From an uncultured Chloroflexia bacterium (GTDB taxonomy: Bacteria; Chloroflexota; Limnocylindria; Limnocylindrales; CSP1-4), in NCBI GenBank assembly GCA_963765245.1, contig CAVXVP010000020.1:152865-216864 (forward strand): a stretch of DNA of 64,000 bases. Reading direction: 5' to 3'. The notes below the pieces were generated by a model, which was not told the origin of the DNA, made no database searches, and worked only from the letters and a program-made list of their open reading frames with translations. Numbering within the stretch: position 1 is the stretch's first letter; every line of letters starts with the position of its first letter. This document shows, in pieces, positions 49,112-61,500 of this stretch. The translations under genes and the position numbers were made by a program.

Positions 49112-50638
49112 TCAGGCCGGCGTGGCCGGCGCAGCTGGTGCGGCCGGAGGGGCCGGCGCCACCTCGTCGGTCTCGCCCATCGCCTCGCGGACGGAGCGCA
49201 GCTTGTCGCGCTCCCGGAACCAGAAGTAGAGCCCGATGACGATCCCGATCAGCATCCAGATCCCAACCAGAGGTGGGACTACCGAGTAGGGCTCGACCAA
49301 CGGATCAAGCTTCACATCCACGATCGGGATGGTGACGCCGCCAAGCACGCCGAGGAACGCCGGGATCATCAGGATGAACCCGATCACGGGCACGATCAGG
49401 TGCTTGAACCAGTTGAACTCGTCACGCCGCTCGCGCCAGTAGTAGCCGATCGCGGCGAGGTTGACCGCCATGTACATCCCGGCGAACAACAGCCCGATCG
49501 CGTAGCCGATCGTGACATATGAGTTCAGCGGGCCGGGCGTCTTCGGGTACTGGTTGCCCAGGAAGAGGCTGAGCCCGACGGCGATGATGATCCCAACGAT
49601 CGCCTGCAGGTGGATCGCCGTTGACGGCGTGTGATGCGTCGGGTGGACATTCCCGAATGCTGCCGGGAGGAGCCGCGACCGTCCGAGCGCAAAGACCGAT
49701 CGAGTCGACGCGTTCGCTCCCGAGTTCGCATTGGCGAGACAGCTGTTGAGGATCGCGATCGTGACCAGGTAACTGCCGATGCCGGGCAGGACCTCGTCGG
49801 CCATGCCACCCCATGGGTTGCTGTCGTTGGCGGCGAAGAAGTCGGCCATCTTGTCCGGGCCGAAATAGACGGTCGCGGCGTAGTAGCAGAACACGTAGAA
49901 GAGGCCGATCAGGATCGCCGACCCGATGATCGCCAGGCGTGTGTTCCGCTTCGGATCGCGTGTCTCCTCGGCCAGCGGTGCGGCCGCTTCGAATCCGACG
50001 AACGCGAGCAGGCAGAAGACCATCCCCTGGAGGGCGGGCTGGATCCCCGCGTCGCCAGGGATGAACACGGACGCTGTGTTCCGGCTGCCGGCGTTGATCA
50101 CGAGCAGGGCCGACACGAACACCATGATCCCGATCTCGATCAGGCCGAGAGCGACCCCGACGCGTGTCGAGATCGAGACGCCGCGGTACGTGAGGTACCA
50201 CACGATGCCGGCGCAGATCAGGGCCAGCGGGACCCACAGGTATTCCTGCTCGAAGCCAGTCAGCTCCGTGATGAACGACGCCCCGAAGAAGCCGAAGGCC
50301 GCGAACAGGATCGACGGAACGACGATCGACGCGAGCAGGAACGCCCATGCGATCAGCCAACCGGCATACGACCCGAGTCCACGGCCGACGTAGGTGTACA
50401 TGCCGCCCGCGGACGGAAGGTGGCGGGCGAGCTCGCCCATCGAGAACGCCGTGAACAGGACCGCGATCAGGGCAAACAGGACGGCCAGCGGGGTCAGGCC
50501 GAGCGCGAAAACCGTCGCGAATCCGATCGACAGGGCGACGGCGACCGCCGGCGCCATGAATGTGATGGACTGGAACAGCACCTCGGTCAGTCCGATCGCG
50601 TTCCGTTCCAGCTGCTGCTGCTGGGGTTGCGAGGTCAT
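49112..50638 (-). CDS. APC family amino acid/amine permease
   Basis: FQSITFMAPA, PSAGGMYTY, FVGFEAAAPLAEETRDP, ~12 TM segments; AAGGAGG RBS. Confidence 0.92.
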   Translation of the reverse strand: MTSQPQQQQLERNAIGLTEVLFQSITFMAPAVAVALSIGFATVFALGLTPLAVLFALIAVLFTAFSMGELARHLPSAGGMYTYVGRGLGSYAGWLIAWAFLLASIVVPSILFAAFGFFGASFITELTGFEQEYLWVPLALICAGIVWYLTYRGVSISTRVGVALGLIEIGIMVFVSALLVINAGSRNTASVFIPGDAGIQPALQGMVFCLLAFVGFEAAAPLAEETRDPKRNTRLAIIGSAILIGLFYVFCYYAATVYFGPDKMADFFAANDSNPWGGMADEVLPGIGSYLVTIAILNSCLANANSGANASTRSVFALGRSRLLPAAFGNVHPTHHTPSTAIHLQAIVGIIIAVGLSLFLGNQYPKTPGPLNSYVTIGYAIGLLFAGMYMAVNLAAIGYYWRERRDEFNWFKHLIVPVIGFILMIPAFLGVLGGVTIPIVDVKLDPLVEPYSVVPPLVGIWMLIGIVIGLYFWFRERDKLRSVREAMGETDEVAPAPPAAPAAPATPA

Positions 50639-50780
50639 CAGGGCCTCCTTCTGACCCGCCCAAATCAGGTAGCGCTCCCTCCTGCGCACGGGTCGAGATG
50701 CATGGTATGCAGCCGACAGGGCTGGGGGAAGGGGTATCGCGTGAATGGCGGCCTCGAGCGCCCGCGTATCATCGCGCTCG

Positions 50781-51497
50781 ATGTGCGAGCACTTCATCGC
50801 CAGGGCCGCCGAGCCATTCAGTCTCGACGAGCTTTGGCAGTTCACTGAGAAGCTCGAGCGGTTTGGCCTGGCCGGCTACGGCTGGGGCGCCGCCTGGCTC
50901 GGCGGGGACGGAAAGCTCGCGTCGTACCGTGACATCCGGGCATTCCGCGACGATCCCGGACGTGAATCCGTCGGGGCGACCGAGACGACATCGGCCCTGG
51001 TCCATCTGCGTCGTCCATCGCGCCTGTCGACGTGGACCCTGTCCGACACGCAGCCGTTCGATGACCCGGCCGGTCGCTTCGCGTTCAGTCACAACGGCGA
51101 CCTGCGTGATTACAAGGACCTGCGCGCCACGTACCGCGCCGCCGGTCGCATCCACGGCCGCGCCGACACCGAGGTCGGGGAGCGCTGGCTCGAGGACGCG
51201 TGGCAACCGGATTCCTCCGGGGGCTCGCTGCTCGCGGCGCTTCACGACCGCTTCGGCGGGCTGGCCAACCTCGCGCTCCTGACCGCCGACGGGACGGCGC
51301 ACCACTACGCCGGCAACGATGAGAACCCTGTATTCGCGTTCCGCCTCGGCAGGATCGGGATCGCGTCGACCGGGATCTACTCGCTCGATCGCTCGCTCTT
51401 CACGTTCGTGGCGCCGGGGGCCACCGACCGCAGGATGGTTCGCTTGCATTCGGGTGTCACACTCGGGCCTGACGGGCGTCACTCAGTCGTCAACTAA
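50781..51497 (+). CDS. Class II glutamine amidotransferase-like Ntn hydrolase (EgtC-like)
   Basis: Met-Cys start (MCEHF), GWGAAW, LVHLR, DTQPF, FSHNG, ADTE; TATCAT -10 eight nt upstream. Confidence 0.8.
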   Translation: MCEHFIARAAEPFSLDELWQFTEKLERFGLAGYGWGAAWLGGDGKLASYRDIRAFRDDPGRESVGATETTSALVHLRRPSRLSTWTLSDTQPFDDPAGRFAFSHNGDLRDYKDLRATYRAAGRIHGRADTEVGERWLEDAWQPDSSGGSLLAALHDRFGGLANLALLTADGTAHHYAGNDENPVFAFRLGRIGIASTGIYSLDRSLFTFVAPGATDRRMVRLHSGVTLGPDGRHSVVN

Positions 51498-51520: not shown

Positions 51521-52915
51521 GTGCACGTCCCGAGTGCGGCCGGGGGATCCAACGCCGACGGGCGACCGACCGCGGACCTGAGCATCCGCGAGCTGTTCGA
51601 CCTGAACAGCTACTGGCTGGCGATCAACATCCTGTGGGGAGCGCTCGGGATCAGCTTGCTGCCGATCCTGATCATCGACACGGTCTGCGGCGGCGACCAG
51701 GTCTGCGGCAACCCGACCCCGATCCTCGGTGGAATCGTGGCCCCGAAGGGGACGGCCGAGGCGATCATCACGACACTCGGTGTCCTCGTCGCGATCCTGG
51801 TCCAGCCGACCGTGGCGGCCATCAGCGACCACACCTCCACGCGGATCGGACGGCGCAAGCCGTTCATCATCGTCGGGACGATCTTCGACATGATCTTCCT
51901 GCTCGGCTTCTACCTCGCGGGCGCGTGGATCGGCCTGCTGATCTTCTACGTCCTCCTCCAGTTCAGCTCGAATTTCGCGCAGGGGCCGTTCCAGGGCTAC
52001 ATGCCGGACCTCGTGCCGGCACGCCAGGTCGGGCTGGCCAGCGGGCTGATGGGGCTGATGATCCTGCTCGGGACCGGTGGCGGGGCGATCCTCGTTGCGG
52101 GTGCGACGGCCTTCGGTAACCCGCGCGCGGCCGTCTTCGTGATCATGGCTGTCGAACTGGTGACGATGCTGCTGACCGTGACCCGGGTGCGCGACGGTCG
52201 GCCCGGCATCCCGCGCAACGGGCGCTCGTGGGGCCGTATCGCGCTCGAAGCGTGGGGCACCGACATCCTCCGCGAACGGAGCTTCATCTGGCTGCTCGGG
52301 TCGCGGCTCTTCCTGCTGATGGCGACGTCGACCCTGATCGCGATGTCCTTCTTCTTCATGCAGGACACGTTCGCGCTCAAGCGGCAAGAGGCGGTCAACC
52401 TGACCGCGGTCGCTGGCATCCTGGTGATCGTCTTCGGCGCCATCGCGACGCTGCCGTCGGGCCGCCTGTCTCAGCGCTTCGGCCGGAAGCGGATGATCTT
52501 CCTCGCCGCGGCGATCGGGTTCATCGGCATGGCCGGGATCGCGATGTCGCAGTCTCCGACGCAGGCCCTCGTGTTCGTGGTCCTCGTCGGCATCGGTGGC
52601 GGGATCTTCCTGGCGGTCGACTGGGCGCTGATGACCGACATCATTCCCAAGGCCGAATCGGGCCGCTACATGGGCATCAGCAACGTCGTGACCGGCGCGT
52701 CCGGAGCGCTCGCCGCGGCCATCGGTTTCGTCATCCTCGACTTCGGCAACAAGATCTCGTATGGGCTGGGTCCTCGGCTCGCCTTCGCGGTCGCCTGCTC
52801 CTATTACGTGATCGGGGCATTGCTCCTGAGGCCGGTCGACGAGCACCGGCGCGAGGACGCTCCGGCGATCGAAACCGCGACGGAGCCACAGATCAGCCCG
52901 GCGCCGGCCGGCTGA
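51521..52915 (+). CDS. MFS transporter (SLC45/BT1-like)
   Basis: QPTVAAISD..STRIGRRKPFI, MPDLVP..QVGLASG, GRLSQRFGRK, DWALMTD. Confidence 0.9.
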   Translation: MHVPSAAGGSNADGRPTADLSIRELFDLNSYWLAINILWGALGISLLPILIIDTVCGGDQVCGNPTPILGGIVAPKGTAEAIITTLGVLVAILVQPTVAAISDHTSTRIGRRKPFIIVGTIFDMIFLLGFYLAGAWIGLLIFYVLLQFSSNFAQGPFQGYMPDLVPARQVGLASGLMGLMILLGTGGGAILVAGATAFGNPRAAVFVIMAVELVTMLLTVTRVRDGRPGIPRNGRSWGRIALEAWGTDILRERSFIWLLGSRLFLLMATSTLIAMSFFFMQDTFALKRQEAVNLTAVAGILVIVFGAIATLPSGRLSQRFGRKRMIFLAAAIGFIGMAGIAMSQSPTQALVFVVLVGIGGGIFLAVDWALMTDIIPKAESGRYMGISNVVTGASGALAAAIGFVILDFGNKISYGLGPRLAFAVACSYYVIGALLLRPVDEHRREDAPAIETATEPQISPAPAG

Positions 52916-53822
52916 GGCGCCCGCGCGCGTCCGTGATCCAGGCCCGCCACGTCGCGGGCCGCAGGAAGTCGAGCGGGTCGGCCTTGCGGTAGAGCCACGG
53001 GACGGCGGCCCAGAGGTAGACCAGGAAGTCGAGCCTGACCGGGCGCGCGCCGAAGCCGAACAGCGCCTGGAGCTGGATGATCGTGAGCGGCAGCGTCAGC
53101 AGGCTGAGGGCGACCGAGACGGCCAGCCAGAACAGCCCCCACTGTTTCGCTCGACCGGGGAGGATCGGCCAGAAGACGACCGGGACCCATTTCATCCAGG
53201 TCGCCAACGCCCATAACAGGCCGCCGAGCCGCGGACCGGTGAACTGAGCGGCCCACAACATCAAGGTGAGCTGCAGGTTGATGTTGCCGGTGTCGAGGTT
53301 GGCACCGAACGGGAAAGCCAGGACCGCGATGATGATCGCCGTCGTCAGCGGCCGGCGGCGGTACGCCCAGTGGATCGTCCAGAGCAGGAGCAGGATCGTC
53401 CCGACCCGCCAGAGGAACCAGGCGACATCCCACGGTAGCACCGCCCACGGCGCGAAGAGCGGCAGCATCCACGGGGCGTAGACATAGGGCAGGAACGGCC
53501 CGACGGGATGGTACGGGTCGCCGCCGTTGAGCCAGATCCGGACTCCCGCCCAGTAGGCGCGGGCATCGGCCCCGCCCGCCTCGCCGCGGGCGATCATTCC
53601 CGACAGGACGACGGCGAAAGTCAGGCTGAGCAGCAGGATCGCGGCGATCCGGCGCGGATCGTGGAGTCGCGAGACCTCGCGCCGGAGCGCCCTGCGAAAG
53701 ACGCCGGCACGCCGTCGCGTCCCGCGATCCACGTGATCGGATAGGTCGACGATGATCCGTCCGCGCCCACGGGCCGTGCCCGGAACAGGCTGGAGGCCGG
53801 GCGGCGGCGCAGGATCGGTCAT
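52893..53822 (-). CDS. GT-C glycosyltransferase family 87 (DUF2029)-like membrane protein
   Basis: DARAYW...G.DPY...PYVYAPW, GNINL, KWVP. Confidence 0.75.
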   Translation of the reverse strand: MTDPAPPPGLQPVPGTARGRGRIIVDLSDHVDRGTRRRAGVFRRALRREVSRLHDPRRIAAILLLSLTFAVVLSGMIARGEAGGADARAYWAGVRIWLNGGDPYHPVGPFLPYVYAPWMLPLFAPWAVLPWDVAWFLWRVGTILLLLWTIHWAYRRRPLTTAIIIAVLAFPFGANLDTGNINLQLTLMLWAAQFTGPRLGGLLWALATWMKWVPVVFWPILPGRAKQWGLFWLAVSVALSLLTLPLTIIQLQALFGFGARPVRLDFLVYLWAAVPWLYRKADPLDFLRPATWRAWITDARGRLSRPAPG

Positions 53823-53908
53823 GGCAGGGCATTCTCGCATGGCGGCTCTCGCGTTCCGCGAGGCGCGCGCGACGGTCGACATGCCAGCCGAGGCGGCAGA
53901 CTGCCTTC

Positions 53909-54211
53909 GTGGAACCTGGGAGCCCGCACGTCACGCCGTCGCCCGAGTCGCCGACGAGGCCGCCGATCGACCCATCACCTGGTGCCGATCCGGAGCCGGT
54001 CCTCCCGCCCGGTCGCGAGGTCGCGTGGCGGGAGATGACCGGCTGCTTCGTGGCTTATCTGCTGATGGCCATCGCGATCATCGGACTGCCGCTCGGGATC
54101 GTGTTCGGCGTCCTCACCGGGGAGTGGCGCTGGCTCGTTCCGTGGGCGCTCGTGGCGATCTCGGTCTTCGTCCTGGGTCGGCTCAACAAGATCCCGATCT
54201 TCGGCAGCTAG
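53909..54211 (+). CDS. Small two-TM membrane protein
   Basis: Pro-rich N-terminus then two hydrophobic helices. Confidence 0.6.
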   Translation: MEPGSPHVTPSPESPTRPPIDPSPGADPEPVLPPGREVAWREMTGCFVAYLLMAIAIIGLPLGIVFGVLTGEWRWLVPWALVAISVFVLGRLNKIPIFGS

Positions 54212-54315
54212 GCTGCCCTTGCGCCAGATCGGCGCCCGCAAGACTGATCGGGAGCGGTCGCGGCCTCGCGTCCGGTATCCTCTCGCGAAGCACTCCCTAG
54301 GAGTCGAGATCCCCA

Positions 54316-55152
54316 GTGGCTGATGGAACCGTCATCATCATCGGCGGTGCGGAAGACAAGGTCCGCGACCGCGTGATCCTGAACCGCTTCGTCACGTTGG
54401 CGGGTGGCCCAGACGCCACGATCGCGGTCATCAGCACCGCGTCGTCGCTCGGGCTCGAGGCCGGCGAGCGATATCGCGCCGTCTTCGGGGAACTGGGCGC
54501 CAAGCGTGTTCGCCCGCTCCACGCGGTCACTCGGCCGCAGGCCAACGACGAGACCGCAGTGATGGCCGTTCGCGACGCGACCGGCGTCTTCCTCACCGGC
54601 GGAAACCAGCTGCGGCTGTCGTCGACGATCGGTGGGACGCTCCTCGCCGATGCGATCCTCGACCGTTTCCAGGACGGCGCGGTGGTGGCCGGTACGTCCG
54701 CCGGCGCGTCGGCGATGTCGAGCCACATGATCGCGTTTGGCGCGTCGGGCGCCACGCCCAAGCACCGCATGGCCCAGATCGCGGCGGGTCTCGGCGTCCT
54801 GCCCGGGGTCATCATCGACCAGCATTTCCAGCAACGGAACCGCCTTGGGCGGCTGCTCAGCCTGATCGCCCAGAACCCGAGCCTGCTCGGGCTCGGTGTC
54901 GACGAGGACACGGCCGGCGTCGTCGGCCCGGACCACATCATGGAGGTCATCGGTCGCGGTTCGATCACCGTCGTCGATGGCGCCAAGTCCGAGACCGACG
55001 CCTGGGAGATCCACGGACACCGGCCACTCATGATCAGCGGCGTCGTGCTGCATTCCCTGCCGGCCGGATATCGATTCGACCTGCGCCATCGCGAACGCGT
55101 CGCGACGCCGACCCTCCACGCATTGCCCGGCGGCGAGGCCGCTTCCAGCTAG
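54316..55152 (+). CDS. cphB: Cyanophycinase
   Basis: IIGGAEDK, FLTGGNQLRL, AGTSAGA, IDQHFQQRNRLGRL, GVDEDT. Confidence 0.95.
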   Translation: MADGTVIIIGGAEDKVRDRVILNRFVTLAGGPDATIAVISTASSLGLEAGERYRAVFGELGAKRVRPLHAVTRPQANDETAVMAVRDATGVFLTGGNQLRLSSTIGGTLLADAILDRFQDGAVVAGTSAGASAMSSHMIAFGASGATPKHRMAQIAAGLGVLPGVIIDQHFQQRNRLGRLLSLIAQNPSLLGLGVDEDTAGVVGPDHIMEVIGRGSITVVDGAKSETDAWEIHGHRPLMISGVVLHSLPAGYRFDLRHRERVATPTLHALPGGEAASS

Positions 55153-55193: not shown

Positions 55194-58049
55194 GTGGCCG
55201 ACACCGTGGCCCGCACGAAGCCCCGCTCCCAGCGAGCGTCCGGGCGCGCACCCGACTCCGCGGGGAGTGGTCCGGCTCCCACGCTCCGGATCCTCGAGAC
55301 GCGCGTGCTGCGCGGACCGAACTACTGGGCGCGCGAGCCGGTCATCCGGCTCCTCGTCGACCTCGGTGTCCTCGAGCAGTACCCGTCCAACCTGATCCCG
55401 AACTTCACCGATGCGCTGGTCGCCCTCCTGCCGACGCTCGAGGACCATGCCTGTTCGCTCGGTCGTCGCGGCGGCTTCATCACCCGGCTGCGCGACGGGA
55501 CGTGGATGGGCCATATCGCCGAGCACGTGGCGCTCGAGTTCCAGAACCTGGCCGGGACCGACGTCCGGCACGGCAAGACGCGCGCGGCAGGACCGCTCGG
55601 TCAGTACAACTGCATCTACGAATACCGCGAGGAGGCCGTCGGCCTCGAAGCGGGCCGGATGTCGGTGGCGCTGGTCAACCACCTCGTGGCACCCGACGAT
55701 CCCGACCACTTCTTCGACTTCGCCCCGGAGATGGAGCGGCTCATCCGGCTTGCCGAGAAGCAGGCGTTCGGACCGTCCACCCAGGCGCTCATCGACGAGG
55801 CCGTCAGCCGCGACATCCCGTTCATCCGACTCGACCGCCATTCGCTGGTCCAGTTCGGCCACGGCGTCCACCAGCAGCGCATCCGGGCGACGATGACCTC
55901 GCTGACATCGGCCATCGGGGTGGACGTTGCGTCGGACAAGAGCCTGACCAATCGGCTTCTGGACTCCGCGGGACTCCCGGTCCCGCGCGCGGACGTGGTC
56001 GACAACGAAGAGGGCGCGGTCGCGGTCGCCAAGCGGCTCGGCTTCCCGTGCGTGGTCAAGCCGCTCGACGGCAACCACGGCCGCGGCGTCCACCTCAATC
56101 TCCGCTCCGAGGAGGAGGTCCGCGCCGCGTTCCACGGCGCGCTGGCCCAGAGCCGGGGCGGCGACGTCGTGATCGAGACGTACGTGGCCGGCAACGACTA
56201 TCGCTGCCTGGTCATCGGCGGCAAGGTCGCGGCCATCGCCGAGCGCGTCCCGGCCTCGGTGACCGGCGACGGCGAACACACGGTCCGCGAGCTGGTCGAG
56301 ATCGCCAACGGCGACCCGCGCCGCGGGATCGGCCACGAGAAGGTGCTGACCCGCATCAAGGTCGACGAGGCGGCCGAGGCGCTCGTCCGCGACCAGGGCT
56401 ACGGGATGGACGACGTCCTGCCCGGGGGGACCTGGGTCAAGCTGGCGCTGACCGGCAACATGTCGACCGGCGGGACGTCGATCGACCGGACGATCGAGGC
56501 GCACCCCGACAACGTCGAGATCGCCGAGACGGCGGCGCGCATCGTCGGACTCGATGTCGCCGGCATCGACTTCATCTGCCCCGACATCGCCACGCCCGTG
56601 CGCGAGACCGGCGGCGCGATCGTCGAGGTCAACGCCGCGCCCGGCTTCCGGATGCACACCCACCCGACCGAGGGCGAGCCGCAGTACGTCGCGCGGCCGG
56701 TGATCGACTCGCTCTTCCCGGCCGGGTCATCGGCGCGCATCCCGATCATCGCGGTGACCGGCACCAACGGCAAGACGACGACGGTCCGGATGATCGCGCA
56801 CATCCTCAAGCTGATGGGCCGGCGGGTCGGGATGACCTCGACCGACGGCATCGTCATCGACGGCCGGCTGATCAAGAAGGGCGACATGTCGGGGCCGAAG
56901 TCGGCGCTGATGGTGCTCCAGAACCCGACCGTCGACACCGCGGTCTTCGAGGTCGCCCGCGGCGGGATCCTGCGCGAGGGCCTCGGCTACGACCGCAACG
57001 ACGTCGCGGTCGTGACCAACGTCACCGGCGACCACCTCGGCCTGGGCGGCATCGATTCGATCGGCCAGCTGGCCAACGTCAAGGGCGTCGTCGTGGAGGC
57101 CGTGCCGCGTTCGGGGACCGCGGTCCTCAACGCCGACGACAACCACGTCTACCGGATGGGCCGCCACTGTGCCGGGCGCGTCGTCCTGTTCAGCATGGCG
57201 ATGGCCAAGGGCGAGGACGGCTACGACCGGGTCGACGGCCACACCAGCCGGGGCGGGGCGGCGTTCCGCCTCGAGAACACGGCCGAAGGCGAGCTGATCG
57301 TCCTGCGCCTCGGGTCGCGCACGATGCCGGTCCTCTACACGCACCTCATCCCGGCGACATTCGGCGGCCGGGCACGGATGAACGTGGCCAACGCGCTGGC
57401 CGCGGCGGCCGCGGCGTGGGCCGCCGGCGCGCACCTGCACGACATCCGCCAGGGCCTGCGCACCTTCTCGACGTCGTTCTTCCAGGCGCCGGGGCGGCTC
57501 AACCTCGTCGATGTCGGCGGGGTGCGGGTCGTCATCGACTACTGCCACAACGTGGACGGGATGCGCCAGCTGGCCGATTTCGTCGATCGGATGATGGTCG
57601 AGGCGCAGACCAAGCCGGGCCGGCTCGGCACGGCGTCGACCGGGACCCGTTCGGGGCGTGCCATCGGCGTGCTCGGCATCCCGGGCGACCGGCGCGACGA
57701 CGATCAGCGCCAGTACGGCGCCATCGCCGCGGGCTCGTTCGACGAGATCATCGTCCGCGAGGACAAGAACCTGCGCGGCCGAGCGCCCGGCGAGACCGCC
57801 ACGAACGTGATCGAGGGCGTCCGCGAGGCGAAGGCCGCCGGGACGGCGCGCGCGACGCGATCCGAGAAGGTGCTCGACGAGATGACCGCGGTCCGCGCGG
57901 CCCTTCGCCGGGCGATCCCGGGCGACCTCGTGGTCTGCTGCGTCGACGACGCGATCGGTGTCTATCGCGAGGCGATGGCCGCCGCCGGCACGTCGCGAGG
58001 AGGGACCGCGTTCCACGATCCGGGGGAGCTGACCGCGCCCGACGGATAG
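55194..58049 (+). CDS. cphA: Cyanophycin synthetase (N domain + ATP-grasp + Mur ligase)
   Basis: LRGPNYW, GHIAEHVALE, GPST, VVKPLDGNHGRGV, EVNAAPGFRMH, GTNGKTT, EVARGGILREG, PGRLN, DYCHN. Confidence 0.96.
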   Translation: MADTVARTKPRSQRASGRAPDSAGSGPAPTLRILETRVLRGPNYWAREPVIRLLVDLGVLEQYPSNLIPNFTDALVALLPTLEDHACSLGRRGGFITRLRDGTWMGHIAEHVALEFQNLAGTDVRHGKTRAAGPLGQYNCIYEYREEAVGLEAGRMSVALVNHLVAPDDPDHFFDFAPEMERLIRLAEKQAFGPSTQALIDEAVSRDIPFIRLDRHSLVQFGHGVHQQRIRATMTSLTSAIGVDVASDKSLTNRLLDSAGLPVPRADVVDNEEGAVAVAKRLGFPCVVKPLDGNHGRGVHLNLRSEEEVRAAFHGALAQSRGGDVVIETYVAGNDYRCLVIGGKVAAIAERVPASVTGDGEHTVRELVEIANGDPRRGIGHEKVLTRIKVDEAAEALVRDQGYGMDDVLPGGTWVKLALTGNMSTGGTSIDRTIEAHPDNVEIAETAARIVGLDVAGIDFICPDIATPVRETGGAIVEVNAAPGFRMHTHPTEGEPQYVARPVIDSLFPAGSSARIPIIAVTGTNGKTTTVRMIAHILKLMGRRVGMTSTDGIVIDGRLIKKGDMSGPKSALMVLQNPTVDTAVFEVARGGILREGLGYDRNDVAVVTNVTGDHLGLGGIDSIGQLANVKGVVVEAVPRSGTAVLNADDNHVYRMGRHCAGRVVLFSMAMAKGEDGYDRVDGHTSRGGAAFRLENTAEGELIVLRLGSRTMPVLYTHLIPATFGGRARMNVANALAAAAAAWAAGAHLHDIRQGLRTFSTSFFQAPGRLNLVDVGGVRVVIDYCHNVDGMRQLADFVDRMMVEAQTKPGRLGTASTGTRSGRAIGVLGIPGDRRDDDQRQYGAIAAGSFDEIIVREDKNLRGRAPGETATNVIEGVREAKAAGTARATRSEKVLDEMTAVRAALRRAIPGDLVVCCVDDAIGVYREAMAAAGTSRGGTAFHDPGELTAPDG

Positions 58050-58063
58050 GCTCGCGACGCCGC

Positions 58064-59828
58064 CTACGCCCGCCGCGGCCGGCCCTGCATCCGCGGCACC
58101 AGCTCGGTGAGCTCGGACGCGACATCGACCGGCCGCGCCCCCAGGCGCCGCAACAGCTCGAACACGCCGTCGCGGTCCTCGTGGCACATCAGCACGATGA
58201 CCCGTGCCGCGTCGGATCGGCCGCCGTTGCGCCCCGGCCCCGGCGGCGCCGTTCAGCTCGGCCTGGAGCGCGACCGTCTCGGAGTCGTAGATCGGGACAT
58301 CGGCGGCGGATACCCCACCGGCCACGACGCCGACCATCAACTCCCCGACGACCGACTCCGCGGTCCGTCCGCGCAGGTACTTGAGCGTCTGCTTGATGGC
58401 GACCCGCTGCGCTCGCTCGGCCGCGATCCGGCCGATGCCGCGCAACGTGTCGTCGGGCCGGTCCCCGGCCGTGCCGATGATCGCGGTGATCGGCGCGGCC
58501 CGGCCGGCCGCCCCGCCGGCGATCCCCTGGGCCACGTCCAGCACGGCGCCGATGCCGGCCTCGTTGTGGGCGAAGTCGACGATCACCACCTTGGACCCGA
58601 GGCGGAACAGGTTGAGCCGCCCGGGCGAGCTCTCGGCGCTCGGGGCGAAATGGATCAGTCCGTCGCGGACCTGCTCGATCGTCGCGCCCAACCCGCGTGC
58701 GCCACCGGCCGCGGCCAGCGCGTTGGCGACGTTGTGGCGTGCCAGCCCGCCGATCGTGATCGGCACCAGCGCGACTTCCACGATCGGCGTCTCGGTCGCG
58801 CCGTTGGCCTCGATGATCTGCCCGTCGCGTTCCAGGTAGGCCCGGCCGCCGCCGCGGCGATGGCGCGCGACCGTTGCCGAGGCGTCGCCCTCGAGCGTGA
58901 ACAGCGCGACGCTGGCCTTCACCCGCCGGGCGACCGCCGCGACCAGCGGGTCGTCGGCATTGAGGACCACCCAGCCGTCGGGCTTGGTGATCCGGCAGAT
59001 CGTCGACTTCACCTCGGCCAGCTCGGGGAGGGTATGGATGCCCTGCAGGTCGAGATGGTCGGACGAGACGTTGGTCAGCACGCTCGCGTCGTTCGACTCG
59101 TAGCCGACGCCGCGCAGGACGATCCCGCCTCGGGCGGTCTCGAGGACGGCGACGTCGACATCGCGCCGCGCCAGGACCTGGTGCGCGCCGCCCGGCCCGG
59201 TCCAGTCGCCCGGCTCGATCATCCGCTCGTCGACCAGCACCCCGTCCGATGTGGTCGTCCCGACCTTCCGCCCGGCGCGGGCCAGGATGTGCGTCATCAG
59301 CCGGGTCACGGTGCTCTTGCCGTTGGTCCCCGAGACCGACACGATCGGGATGTGACGGTCGGCGTCGCGCAGCCATTCCGGCGGCGTCGTCCGGGCGGCC
59401 TCGATCCGCTCGGTCCAGCGCGCCAAGAGCCGCTCCTGTGCGCCGGTCAGCTGGGCGGTCCGTGATGGCGAGACATCGCGCTCGGCAAGGGCGAGCGCCG
59501 CCTCGCTCAACGTCTGGGCACGCTCCGCGCCGGTCCACGGGAAGGTGATGATCCAGTGGCCGGGATCCGACGAGCGATGGACGGCGAGCCCGCTGCGGCC
59601 TTCGTCGTGGTCGGTCCGCAGCCGTCGGATCCAGGCGACGGTCGCGGCGATCGGATCCGGCCAATCGCGGGCGGGCACATCGGCGCCGAGGTGGACCAGC
59701 GCGTGGCGTCCCGGATCCCGCTGTCCGTACCAGGTCCGCCGTCGGCCGATGGCGAACTCGAGCTTGACCACCGGCTCGAGCCGGTAGACATTCGGACCTT
59801 CGAGCAGGCGGGTCTCGACCAGACGCAC
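58064..59828 (-). CDS. CphA paralog with N-like domain + Mur-ligase domains only (frameshift near 58230)
   Basis: RLLEGPNVY; SGTNGKST, VLETARGG, TNVSSDHL, PGRLN, DFAHN, GDRPDD; corrected end MCHEDRDGVF...GRPRRA*. Confidence 0.85.
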
Positions 59829-59872
59829 GGTCCGGGCAGGATAGCAAGGTGCCCGCGACCTAAACTGCCCCC

Positions 59873-61114
59873 ATGGACGCAACGACCGTCACACCGCCCC
59901 TCCCGTCGGCCGCCGAGCTGGACGCCCTGCGCCTCGCGATCGGCGCCGACCTGCCGGCCTACCTCGAAGACCTGGCCGAGCTCGTCAACATCGATTGCGG
60001 CAGCTACACACGCGCCGGCGTCGACGAGGTCGGGCGCTGGGTCACCGCGTTCCTGGGCGAGCTCGGTGCCACGGTCGAGGCCCGGCCGGACCCGGCCGGT
60101 CGCCTCGGCGACACGATCGTCGCCACGTTCGAGGGCCTGGCGAGCGGTCCGCGGGCGCTCCTGATCGGGCACATGGACACGGTCTTCGATCCGGGGACCG
60201 CGGCCGAGCGCCCGTTCCGCATCGAGGATGGGGTCGCCTACGGCCCCGGCGTGACCGACATGAAGTCGGGGCTGTTGGCGGGCCTCTACGCGCTCAAGGC
60301 GATCGTCGCGGAGCGCGGCGGCCTCCCCTTCGAGCGGCTCGTCTTCATCGCCAACCCCGACGAGGAGATCGGTTCACCGACATCGTCGCCGCACATCGCG
60401 GCGATCGCAGCCGACTCCGACGTTGCGCTCGTCCTCGAATGCGCCCGCGCGAACGGCGACATCGTCTCGGCGCGCAAGGGCATCCTCGACCTGCGCATCG
60501 TCGTCCATGGCCGGGCGGCGCACGCCGGCGTCGAGCCCGAGAAGGGTCGCAGCGCGATCCTCGAGGCGGCGCGGATCGTTCGCGAGCTGCACGACCTCAA
60601 CGGCCGCTGGCCGGGCGTCACCGTCAACGTCGGGCGCATCCTGGGCGGGTCGCGACCGAACGTGGTCGCCGAGACGTGCACGCTCGAGGTCGACGTCCGG
60701 GCCACCGCCCGCGATGCGCTCGAGACGGCCGAGGCCACGATCCGCGAGATCGCCGAGGCGGTCGAGATCCCCGACGTGACCGTCGACTTCGAGCCGATGG
60801 CGCGCTGGTGGCCGATGGAGAAGCTCGAGCGCAGCGGCCGGCTGGTCGAGCACGCTCAGGGCGTGGCGCGATCGCTCGGCTTCGAGGTCGCCGATGCGTC
60901 CACGGGTGGCGCCTCGGACGCCAACACGACGGCCGGACTCGGCGTCGCGAGCCTCGACGGCCTCGGACCGATCGGTGGAAACGACCATGCACCGGCGGAG
61001 TACCTCGACGTCGAGTCCATCGTGCCGCGAACGACGATGCTGGCCGGCCTGCTGCTGGCCATCGCCGCGGACCCGGAGATCCTCACCTGGCGGGACTCAG
61101 ACCGGCCGGCATGA
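59873..61114 (+). CDS. M20 family metallopeptidase (carboxypeptidase G2-like)
   Basis: LIGHMDTV, GVTDMKSG, PDEEIGS, VLEC, AHAG, GGASD, GNDH. Confidence 0.9.
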   Translation: MDATTVTPPLPSAAELDALRLAIGADLPAYLEDLAELVNIDCGSYTRAGVDEVGRWVTAFLGELGATVEARPDPAGRLGDTIVATFEGLASGPRALLIGHMDTVFDPGTAAERPFRIEDGVAYGPGVTDMKSGLLAGLYALKAIVAERGGLPFERLVFIANPDEEIGSPTSSPHIAAIAADSDVALVLECARANGDIVSARKGILDLRIVVHGRAAHAGVEPEKGRSAILEAARIVRELHDLNGRWPGVTVNVGRILGGSRPNVVAETCTLEVDVRATARDALETAEATIREIAEAVEIPDVTVDFEPMARWWPMEKLERSGRLVEHAQGVARSLGFEVADASTGGASDANTTAGLGVASLDGLGPIGGNDHAPAEYLDVESIVPRTTMLAGLLLAIAADPEILTWRDSDRPA

Positions 61115-61500
61115 GCGAGCGCCGGCGGATCTCGTCGGGCGGGCCGTGGGAGTCCGTGGCCGGCTACAGCCGGGCGATCGCCGTTGGCGATTCGTGCTGG
61201 GTCGCGGGAACCACCGACGCCGGGCCGGACGGCATTTCGCGCCATCCCGGCGACGCCGGCGCCCAGACGCGCGCCGTCCTCGGGATCATCGAGGCCGCAC
61301 TTGTCGAGGCAGGTTTCGCCCTGACGGACGTGGTGCGGACGAGGATGTTCGTGACCGACATCAGCGGCTGGGACGAGATCGTGGCCGTCCACGGCGCCGT
61401 CTTCGGCGAGATCCGGCCGGCGTCCACGATGGTCGAGGTCCGCGCACTCGTGGATCCGAGCCTCCTCATCGAGATCGAGGCGGAGGCGCGACGGGGCTGA
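61111..61500 (+). CDS. RidA/YjgF family protein
   Basis: WESVAGYSRA, VAGTT, DVVRTRMFV, RPASTMVEV..LV...LIEIEA. Confidence 0.9.
   Translation: MSERRRISSGGPWESVAGYSRAIAVGDSCWVAGTTDAGPDGISRHPGDAGAQTRAVLGIIEAALVEAGFALTDVVRTRMFVTDISGWDEIVAVHGAVFGEIRPASTMVEVRALVDPSLLIEIEAEARRG

Follow-up and report, generated by a model that had tools for sequence, protein, structure and literature searches.

A 64,000-nucleotide window of contig CAVXVP010000020.1, from an uncultured Chloroflexia bacterium, carries a full-length cyanophycin synthetase gene (cphA1) and, converging on it with the two stop codons 14 nucleotides (nt) apart, a shorter gene (58064–59828, minus strand) that encodes a related protein without an ATP-grasp domain. 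What could such a protein do beside a complete CphA1? A sequence-only reading of the window had noted the convergent arrangement and described the short gene as a cyanophycin synthetase paralog that kept only the Mur-ligase half, possibly a ligase acting on side chains alone. Its observations were partly confirmed, and its interpretation was supported. To judge from its sequence, the gene is a member of an old and widespread branch of the CphA family that combines an N domain with a complete Mur-ligase-type M domain and lacks the ATP-grasp G domain (N+M below). We put the probability at roughly 0.55 that the protein is a stand-alone ligase of side chains, catalytically active and acting on cyanophycin together with CphA1.

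Domain architecture of the short protein

Translation of the minus strand from the GTG at 59828 starts (M)RLVETRLLEGPNVYRLEPVVKL, with an N-terminal reading of MRLVETRLLEGPNVYRLEPVVKL..., and after ~158 residues arrives at IPIVSVSGTNGKST and then at the Mur-ligase motifs, in agreement with the earlier description of an N-terminal part of ~150 amino acids (aa) that runs straight into those motifs. The only Pfam matches of the protein were Mur_ligase_M, above the 24-bit cut-off, and Mur_ligase_C, which on the frameshifted translation discussed below scored just under the 28.4-bit cut-off and is listed for intact relatives (Table 1). These two domains and the P-loop place the protein in the Mur ligase superfamily. 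The ATP-grasp domain is missing, as had been reported: no ATP-grasp Pfam family matched the protein, compared with eight ATP-grasp models that matched the neighboring CphA1 together with Cyanophycin_syn, Mur_ligase_M and Mur_ligase_C.

The M domain resembles that of CphA1 more than any Mur ligase. The CphA1 model TIGR02068 scored 372 bits against the protein, over model positions 475–837 only and below its cut-off of 850, compared with 113 bits for the best MurE model (TIGR01085, cut-off 373) and 96.5 bits for PRK00139 (cut-off 257). The MurE, MurF, FolC and PgsB models all scored far under the CphA model and under their own cut-offs. Among PDB sequences, CphA1 entries matched with 256 bits and the best Mur-ligase entry with at most 76 bits; the Mcore region aligned to SuCphA1 residues 486–844. 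The M domains of the short protein and of the neighboring CphA1 are 37% identical.

Because the Pfam Cyanophycin_syn model missed the N region, homology there was shown by profile-profile alignment. The N region of clade A, one of two N+M clades described below and here including the window family, was compared with a profile of the CphA1 N and G domains and aligned to the N domain with an hhalign probability of 97% (E 7.7e-11, 142 columns); for clade B the match, at 96% probability, covers the N domain and runs on into the first ~45 residues of G. The first 28 aa also matched the window CphA1 in BLASTP (E 5e-5). R-x-L-x-G-P-N at the extreme N-terminus is the sole stretch kept across CphA1 and both short clades, with L9, G11 and N13 invariant in 32 family members; in SuCphA1 the residue that follows this motif, Y14, touches bound cyanophycin (PMC9262961). 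Together with a structural match over the whole model (see below), the profile alignment identifies a CphA-type N domain. Thus, the claim that only the Mur-ligase half was kept holds for the complete M domain and understates the protein, which has kept an N domain as well, and by descent of both domains we assign the N+M protein to the CphA family.

The N domain of CphA1 can contain a metallopeptidase-like site, Cx19HxxEH, that generates primers (PMC9262961). In the profile alignment the active-site helix of CphA1, GHIAEHVALE with its HIAEH motif, lies opposite AATVAWIRRLR in the N region of the family, and Cx19HxxEH is therefore absent from the N+M protein, as the sequence-only reading had said of the HxxEH motif.

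Active-site conservation and predicted structure

Of some 78 M-domain columns with at least 90% conservation among 21 full-length CphA1s, the window family shares all except ~11. Among those kept are the P-loop, the Mg ligands and the phosphate-binding residues known from TeCphA1 (PMC9427784), the DH pair, R404, H421 and the Mur-type lysine. G167, T168, N169, K171 and T173 are invariant both in the N+M family and in CphA1. K171, T173, E230 and K274, which match TeCphA1 K499, T500, E558 and the Mur-type lysine, are conserved, and E230 is invariant, as are R404 and H421, which correspond to TeCphA1 R731 and H748; T192, at an aligned threonine conserved in CphA1, was assigned to TeCphA1 T522 by position. 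The protein therefore has a complete M domain with the ATP- and Mg-binding residues of TeCphA1 (K499, T500, T522, E558, R731 and H748). The CphA-specific motifs GD..GP, ETARGG, GDR and YLRGR are also kept in the window family and are lacking in the genome's own Mur ligases. From this residue conservation the M domain appears to be catalytically competent.

An AlphaFold2 model built from a 32-sequence alignment had a mean predicted local distance difference test score of 88.3 and a predicted template modeling (TM) score of 0.89. In a Foldseek search of the PDB, CphA1 structures were the top matches (E 1.6e-37 to 1.8e-36), followed by MurE at ~1e-20. The TM-score against 7lg5_A was 0.77 when normalized to the whole query, which implies that N and Mcore pack together in the model just as in CphA1. 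In published CphA1 structures the chain end in the M reaction sits in the groove between N and Mcore (PMC9427784).

Family distribution and phylogeny

Searching 5.8 billion proteins gave thousands of matches. The best 120 were almost all 584–598 aa long and 83–99% identical, came from metagenome-assembled genomes (MAGs) of Chloroflexota or Candidatus Limnocylindrales, and carried no labels but the generic "Mur ligase family protein" or "cyanophycin synthetase". When one genome per species was scanned, an intact frame of ~587 aa was found at 463 confirmed places in genomes of relatives (74–94% identity), the retained loci aligning over essentially the full length of the protein. The same architecture at so many places shows that the missing ATP-grasp region is not an assembly deletion, a possibility that the sequence-only reading had raised against itself.

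An exhaustive HMMER search of 50%-identity representatives yielded more than 7000 proteins at E<=1e-40, and N+M proteins of 520–590 aa were found in other phyla. Clade A contains many proteins of 517–590 aa that align end to end at 35–45% identity. Clade B proteins (559–591 aa) start ...SRRLTGPNL... and have Myxococcota and Thermoanaerobaculia among their sources. Full-length CphA1s (870–945 aa) matched over the M domain only, at ~40% identity.

We built a maximum likelihood tree of 76 M-domain sequences under the LG+C20 posterior mean site frequency model, with support from the Shimodaira-Hasegawa-like approximate likelihood ratio test. All full-length CphA1s fell in one clade (support 97), including four that are encoded beside N+M genes. 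The N+M proteins fell outside it, in clade B (support 94) and in a group of clade A with the Limnocylindria family (support 83). The nearest neighbors of all N+M proteins are the M domains of CphA1, and the genome's own Mur ligases, MurE-like and other, lie far away. The proposed test by Mur-domain phylogeny thus came out for CphA and against MurC-F, CapB and FolC, in line with the profile scores, the PDB matches and the fold.

Since the N+M proteins fall outside the CphA1 clade, the short gene is, on the evidence of the tree, of old descent and did not arise by recent truncation of its neighbor, and the 37% identity of the two M domains fits this. A recent deletion of the G domain from the neighboring cphA1 was considered and rejected for the same two reasons. 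The term paralog is accordingly right as to CphA homology and wrong if taken to mean a recent local copy. In clade B, the vestige of the G domain in the profile alignment favors an ancient loss of G for that clade.

Other G-less CphA proteins have a different history. Four of them (P0225, P0253, P0247 and P0239; 567–616 aa) contain a full N domain with HxxEH and the start of the G domain, and in the tree they fall within CphA1 clades; the source of P0225 is a Bacillota MAG. These are evidently independent, recent deletions of the ATP-grasp core, apparently in other lineages. In a further protein, the natural fusion P0141 (972 aa), the first ~375 residues are an M domain of CphA1 type, sister to the CphA1 of locus L092, and are joined to a complete clade-B N+M protein, so that each chain holds two M-type ligase units and no G domain.

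Association with cphA1

The co-occurrence with cphA and cphB that the sequence-only reading had asked about was found in related loci, in the class, in the phylum and in most distant contexts. In 80 related loci, the cphA-cphB pair lies convergently downstream of the N+M gene in most cases, the divergent neighbor is an M20 peptidase gene in 78, and a RidA gene comes next in 70. Both cphA and cphB were present in all 80 of these loci or in their genomes. An apparent absence of cphA from ~18 of the 80 was traced to short flanks or to inserts of 8–13.5 kb, and the genomes of six seemingly cphA-less loci have cphA1 on the same contig, 8–13.5 kb away.

In a sample of 121 genomes of the class, 57 had both genes adjoining, 61 had neither and three gave a single match, so that 57 of 60 positives have both. 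The single matches were a partial paralog (G053), a cphA1 cut at a contig end (G105) and a cphA1 only (G108). In a sample of 251 genomes of the phylum Chloroflexota, both genes were present in 30, CphA1 only in four, the short gene only in none, and neither in 217; that is, 30 of the 34 CphA1-bearing genomes have the short gene. In seven of the 30 genomes with both, the genes lie on different contigs or 3.8 Mb apart, and co-occurrence therefore holds without linkage.

Distant homologs also stand beside cphA, in Myxococcota, Thermoanaerobaculia (Acidobacteriota) and other lineages. Six of eight distant contexts agree with the pattern: three N+M genes are convergent with cphA-cphB, two form a cphA-(N+M) operon with gaps of 10 and 4 nt, the former operon additionally holding an IadA-like amidohydrolase gene and cphB, and one, in Chloroflexota family f32, is unlinked, with cphA elsewhere in the genome. 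One of the remaining two has nothing relevant nearby, and the other lies beside another G-less CphA-like gene. The short gene behaves as an accessory dependent on CphA1. That it was never found without CphA1 is expected, because without a G domain no backbone would be made.

Some of these distant loci have further features. An M20 gene lies upstream of the N+M gene in locus L091 as well. Locus L094 (7001–11029) contains a clade-B N+M gene, a methyltransferase gene and a convergent gene whose 570-aa product combines a Cyanophycin_syn N domain with Mur_ligase_M and has no ATP-grasp match on record; no full-length cphA lies within 15 kb. In the large (~6 Mb) f32 genomes, the N+M gene that is unlinked from cphA1 follows proS and proC (L097, G312:C1, 6448–9317), and its stop codon overlaps the start of a 423-aa open reading frame (ORF) without a Pfam match, which may be a further partner. 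The neighbors of this unlinked copy (proS, proC, the 423-aa ORF and an acyl-CoA dehydrogenase gene) gave no functional clue.

The persistence of co-occurrence where the genes are unlinked also bears on whether the short gene merely adjoins cphA and encodes an unrelated Mur-family ligase of the cell wall, folate or poly-gamma-glutamate type. Two labels given in public annotations ("Mur ligase family protein" and "UDP-N-acetylmuramyl tripeptide synthase") would fit such an enzyme, as would the rank of MurE as next-best fold match. The low scores of the MurE, MurF, FolC and PgsB models, the CphA-like N-terminal domain and the presence of separate Mur ligases in the genome (a MurE-like gene is on contig C8) all speak against it, and we regard it as extremely improbable.

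Proposed role and alternatives

We propose a mechanism by analogy with the M domain of CphA1; the activity, the substrate and the division of labor with CphA1 are inferred. ATP-Mg would be bound at the P-loop, and the beta-carboxylate of a chain-terminal Asp would be activated with ATP. An incoming amino acid, of which Arg or Lys is the most likely, would then receive the acyl group at its alpha-amino group, while the retained N domain holds the chain. Backbone extension would be impossible because there is no G domain, and the supply of substrate would therefore depend on CphA1. Beside CphA1, such an enzyme might provide extra M-type capacity, finish or cap chains, or change the side-chain composition.

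Several points weigh against this role. The ATPase activity is a prediction, as are the acyl acceptor and the amino acid that would be added. CphA1 has an apparently intact M domain of its own, so that a second M activity has no obvious benefit. The window family differs from the CphA1 consensus at three conserved positions (R594 to L, D857 to T and E867 to S, in window CphA1 numbering), which could mean a different substrate; the equivalents of D857 are K or L in other N+M clades, and two of the changes remove acidic residues that CphA1 conserves in Mlid, a hint of altered specificity. The Pfam N-domain model PF18921 (Cyanophycin_syn) did not match the protein at E<=0.01. In the tree, the support of 83 for clade A is weak and the root lies on two long-branch outgroups. 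No full-length cphA is nearby in two of the eight distant contexts. The window copy is frameshifted and could be dead. Expression of the gene, which would speak for a function, has weak support from soil metatranscriptome contigs that are ~92–99% identical to it in the pieces examined (one example, at 59200–59344, is 145 nt with two differences); these pieces are short and may contain DNA.

The strict co-occurrence with CphA1 would also fit a non-catalytic partner, a structural or regulatory subunit that binds CphA1 or cyanophycin granules. The Mcore of CphA1 contacts the G cores of other protomers, and in CphA2 an M domain of the CphA type has become a purely structural one. However, the structural M domain of CphA2 is truncated, unlike that of the N+M protein, and clades that are only 35–45% identical show no variation in the P-loop, the Mg ligands, the DH pair, the Mur-type lysine, R404, H421 or Mlid as a whole. 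A non-catalytic subunit is disfavored because the active site is conserved, and it seems to us very unlikely.

The same M-domain chemistry could instead join the beta-carboxylate of free Asp to Arg, giving beta-Asp-Arg or short oligomers that prime CphA1. CphA1 needs primers, its own primer-free start being very slow (PMC9262961), and the short protein has none of the N-domain peptidase motif that otherwise supplies them. However, the window CphA1 has a full Cx19HxxEH and so would be expected to work without primers, the parts of the N domain that contact the polymer (its groove and the GPN loop) are conserved, and the M site in CphA1 structures bound only chains ending in an Arg-free Asp (PMC9427784). 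We consider a dipeptide or primer synthase quite unlikely; this alternative and that of an unrelated Mur ligase find little or no support.

A bolder version of the proposed ligase is that N+M proteins form a third functional class ("CphA3-like") that adds a residue CphA1 does not add or caps chain ends, and/or that they retain the form of an ancestral N-M ligase that later received an ATP-grasp insert to become CphA1. The position outside the CphA1 clade, the changes R to L, D to T/K and E to S, and the dependence on CphA1 all fit these readings, which we hold to be possible and on balance unlikely. If N+M proteins are such a third class, many soil bacteria make chemically different or length-controlled cyanophycin.

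Reading frame of the window copy

The sequence-only reading took 58064–59828 as one unbroken frame and missed a one-base shift at ~58229. The interval is 1765 nt, or 3 x 588 + 1, and owing to the extra base the gene as written is not an intact ORF. The shift was seen both in the three-frame translation and in the DNA: the in-frame reading turns to nonsense after ...AELNGAAGAGA, and the true C-terminus, NGGRSDAARVIVLMCHEDRDG...RPRRA followed by the stop codon, is in the next frame. This adjacent-frame C-terminus, NGGRSDAARVIVLMCHEDRDGVFELLRRLGARPVDVASELTELVPRMQGRPRRA and stop, is identical to that of P0003, an intact relative of 587 aa that is 99% identical to the window protein. No further lesions were found in the window copy. 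Owing to the high guanine-plus-cytosine (G+C) content (~72%), translation in the wrong frame meets no stop for another ~500 codons, antisense to cphA1, giving an artefactual 1051-aa ORF (56727–59882, minus strand) that a gene caller could report as a giant fusion protein.

The extra base is private to this assembly. In four unrelated soil or rhizosphere metagenome runs, every contig spanning 58227–58230 is one base shorter than the window, and 52 of the 63 related loci that span the site show a 1-nt gap within the narrow band scored. Relatives read GCG-CAC-GGC (His) or GCG-AAC-GGC (Asn) at this site, and the window reads GCG-C-AAC-GGC, as if two alleles of a polymorphic His/Asn codon had been merged in the consensus.

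The other possibility is that the frameshift is biological and the gene in this genome is a real, recent pseudogene. The base is present in the window sequence, the shift removes the conserved last strand and helix of Mlid, and no reads of the source sample were found among public runs; the window's own strain was in no public run, the best of which contained 37% of the sampled words. Set against this are the lack of other lesions and the identity to P0003 of all 52 codons past the shift, the location of the site on a CAC/AAC codon where C+AAC resembles a merged consensus, and the intact gene at 463 places in genomes of relatives. We favor an assembly error over a genuine pseudogene by about three to one, and thus rate the latter as unlikely.

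The cyanophycin locus of the window

The G+C content of the region is ~70–74%, and because of this long spurious ORFs are abundant; the real genes were picked out by protein-family searches (Pfam and NCBIfam) and are listed in Table 1.

Table 1. Features of the cyanophycin locus and of the N+M gene (window positions)
Feature	Position	Strand	Evidence or remark
Amino-acid permease	49112–50845	-	Family search
Small glutamine-amidotransferase-like gene	50745–51497	+	Family search
Major facilitator superfamily (MFS) transporter	51521–52915	+	Family search
Cyanophycinase cphB, upstream of cphA1	54316–55152	+	TIGR02069, 261.6 bits (cut-off 126.6); Peptidase_S51
Full-length cphA1, convergent partner of the N+M gene	55194–58049	+	TIGR02068, 1125 bits (cut-off 850)
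N+M cyanophycin-synthetase-like ligase gene	58064–59828	-	587 codons + stop, frame broken by one extra base
N-like domain, residues 1–158	59355–59828	-	CphA1 N-domain homology; RxLxGPN loop kept, Cx19HxxEH absent
Mcore, ATP-binding core of the Mur-ligase-type domain, residues ~159–396	58641–59354	-	PF08245, 80.7 bits
P-loop GTNGKST, residues 167–173	59310–59330	-	Read from the sequence
Mlid, C-terminal Mur-ligase domain, residues ~397–587; frameshift inside	58064–58640	-	PF02875, 26.5 bits, shifted translation
One-base insertion	58227–58230 (~58229)	-	"ggg gcg C aac ggc ggc"; frame shifted 52 codons before the stop
M20 metallopeptidase resembling glutamate carboxypeptidase, divergent from the N+M gene	59873–61114	+	PF01546, PF07687; PRK06133, 286 bits (below the 349 cut-off)
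RidA/YjgF-family gene after the M20 peptidase	~61111–61500 (approximate start)	+	PF01042; TIGR00004, 56 bits (below cut-off)
AzlD-containing ORF		-	Family search

The start codon of the window cphA1 is uncertain, the TIGR02068 match running from ORF residue 32. Its product has a complete Cx19HxxEH motif (C...GHIAEH), and the window CphA1 is therefore predicted to be primer-independent by published criteria (PMC9262961). A scan of the ORFs at 49–64 kb identified no dipeptidase of the IadA, IaaA or CphZ type, which makes the M20 peptidase a candidate for the missing beta-Asp-Arg dipeptidase. The gap of ~1.4 kb between the MFS gene and cphB (52900–54300) holds ORFs on both strands (52804–53934, minus; 53752–54300, plus) without a Pfam or NCBIfam match; the minus-strand ORFs had tblastn matches in 40–44 of the 80 related loci.

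Relation to known systems and significance

The literature covers CphA1, CphA2, the N-domain peptidase site, cyanophycinases and dipeptidases, and we found in the literature searched no description or assay of a CphA relative with N and M domains only, just remarks on neighboring or shorter cphA copies. "CphA3" in the literature is an Aeromonas beta-lactamase. With CphA1 (TIGR02068; PDB 7LG5, 7LGQ and 7WAE) the N+M protein shares a homologous N domain, the catalytic and CphA-specific residues of M, the predicted N-Mcore packing and the cphB neighborhood, and it differs in that the ~330-aa ATP-grasp G domain and the Cx19HxxEH primer site are both gone. Like CphA2, it would be a reduced CphA-family enzyme with an N domain and one catalytic activity. 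However, CphA2 has kept its G domain, and its M domain is truncated and inactive, whereas the N+M protein has no G domain and an M domain of full length (core and lid); it therefore cannot polymerize beta-Asp-Arg dipeptides as CphA2 does. The protein falls outside the definitions of both enzymes because in each case the defining domain is absent or is present in the opposite sense.

The Mur ligases (MurC-F, Mpl, MurT, FolC and PgsB/CapB) resemble the N+M protein in their folds (Mur_ligase_M and Mur_ligase_C), in the P-loop and in an expected ATP-dependent mechanism by way of an acyl phosphate. Unlike them, it has a CphA N domain in place of the N-terminal domain that binds UDP-N-acetylmuramic acid, and it has GD..GP, ETARGG and YLRGR.

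"Second" cphA copies beside cphA in non-cyanobacteria were noted by Fuser and Steinbuchel in 2007, as cited in PMC10687191, and Tetrasphaera MAGs from wastewater have a "shorter copy" of cphA beside the long one, transcribed at a lower level (PMC10687191). Like the N+M gene these copies adjoin cphA and cphB; the reports give neither a domain analysis nor a function, and the comparison is by description only.

Two enzyme types are currently described, CphA1, which performs both reactions, and CphA2, which performs backbone polymerization only; a conserved, apparently active enzyme for the side-chain half would be the missing third type. Such a protein could explain variation in the composition or solubility of the polymer outside cyanobacteria, and as a separable tool it lends itself to the decoration of poly-aspartate with amino acids of choice. 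The N+M branch is also relevant to the question of how CphA1, with its three domains, evolved.

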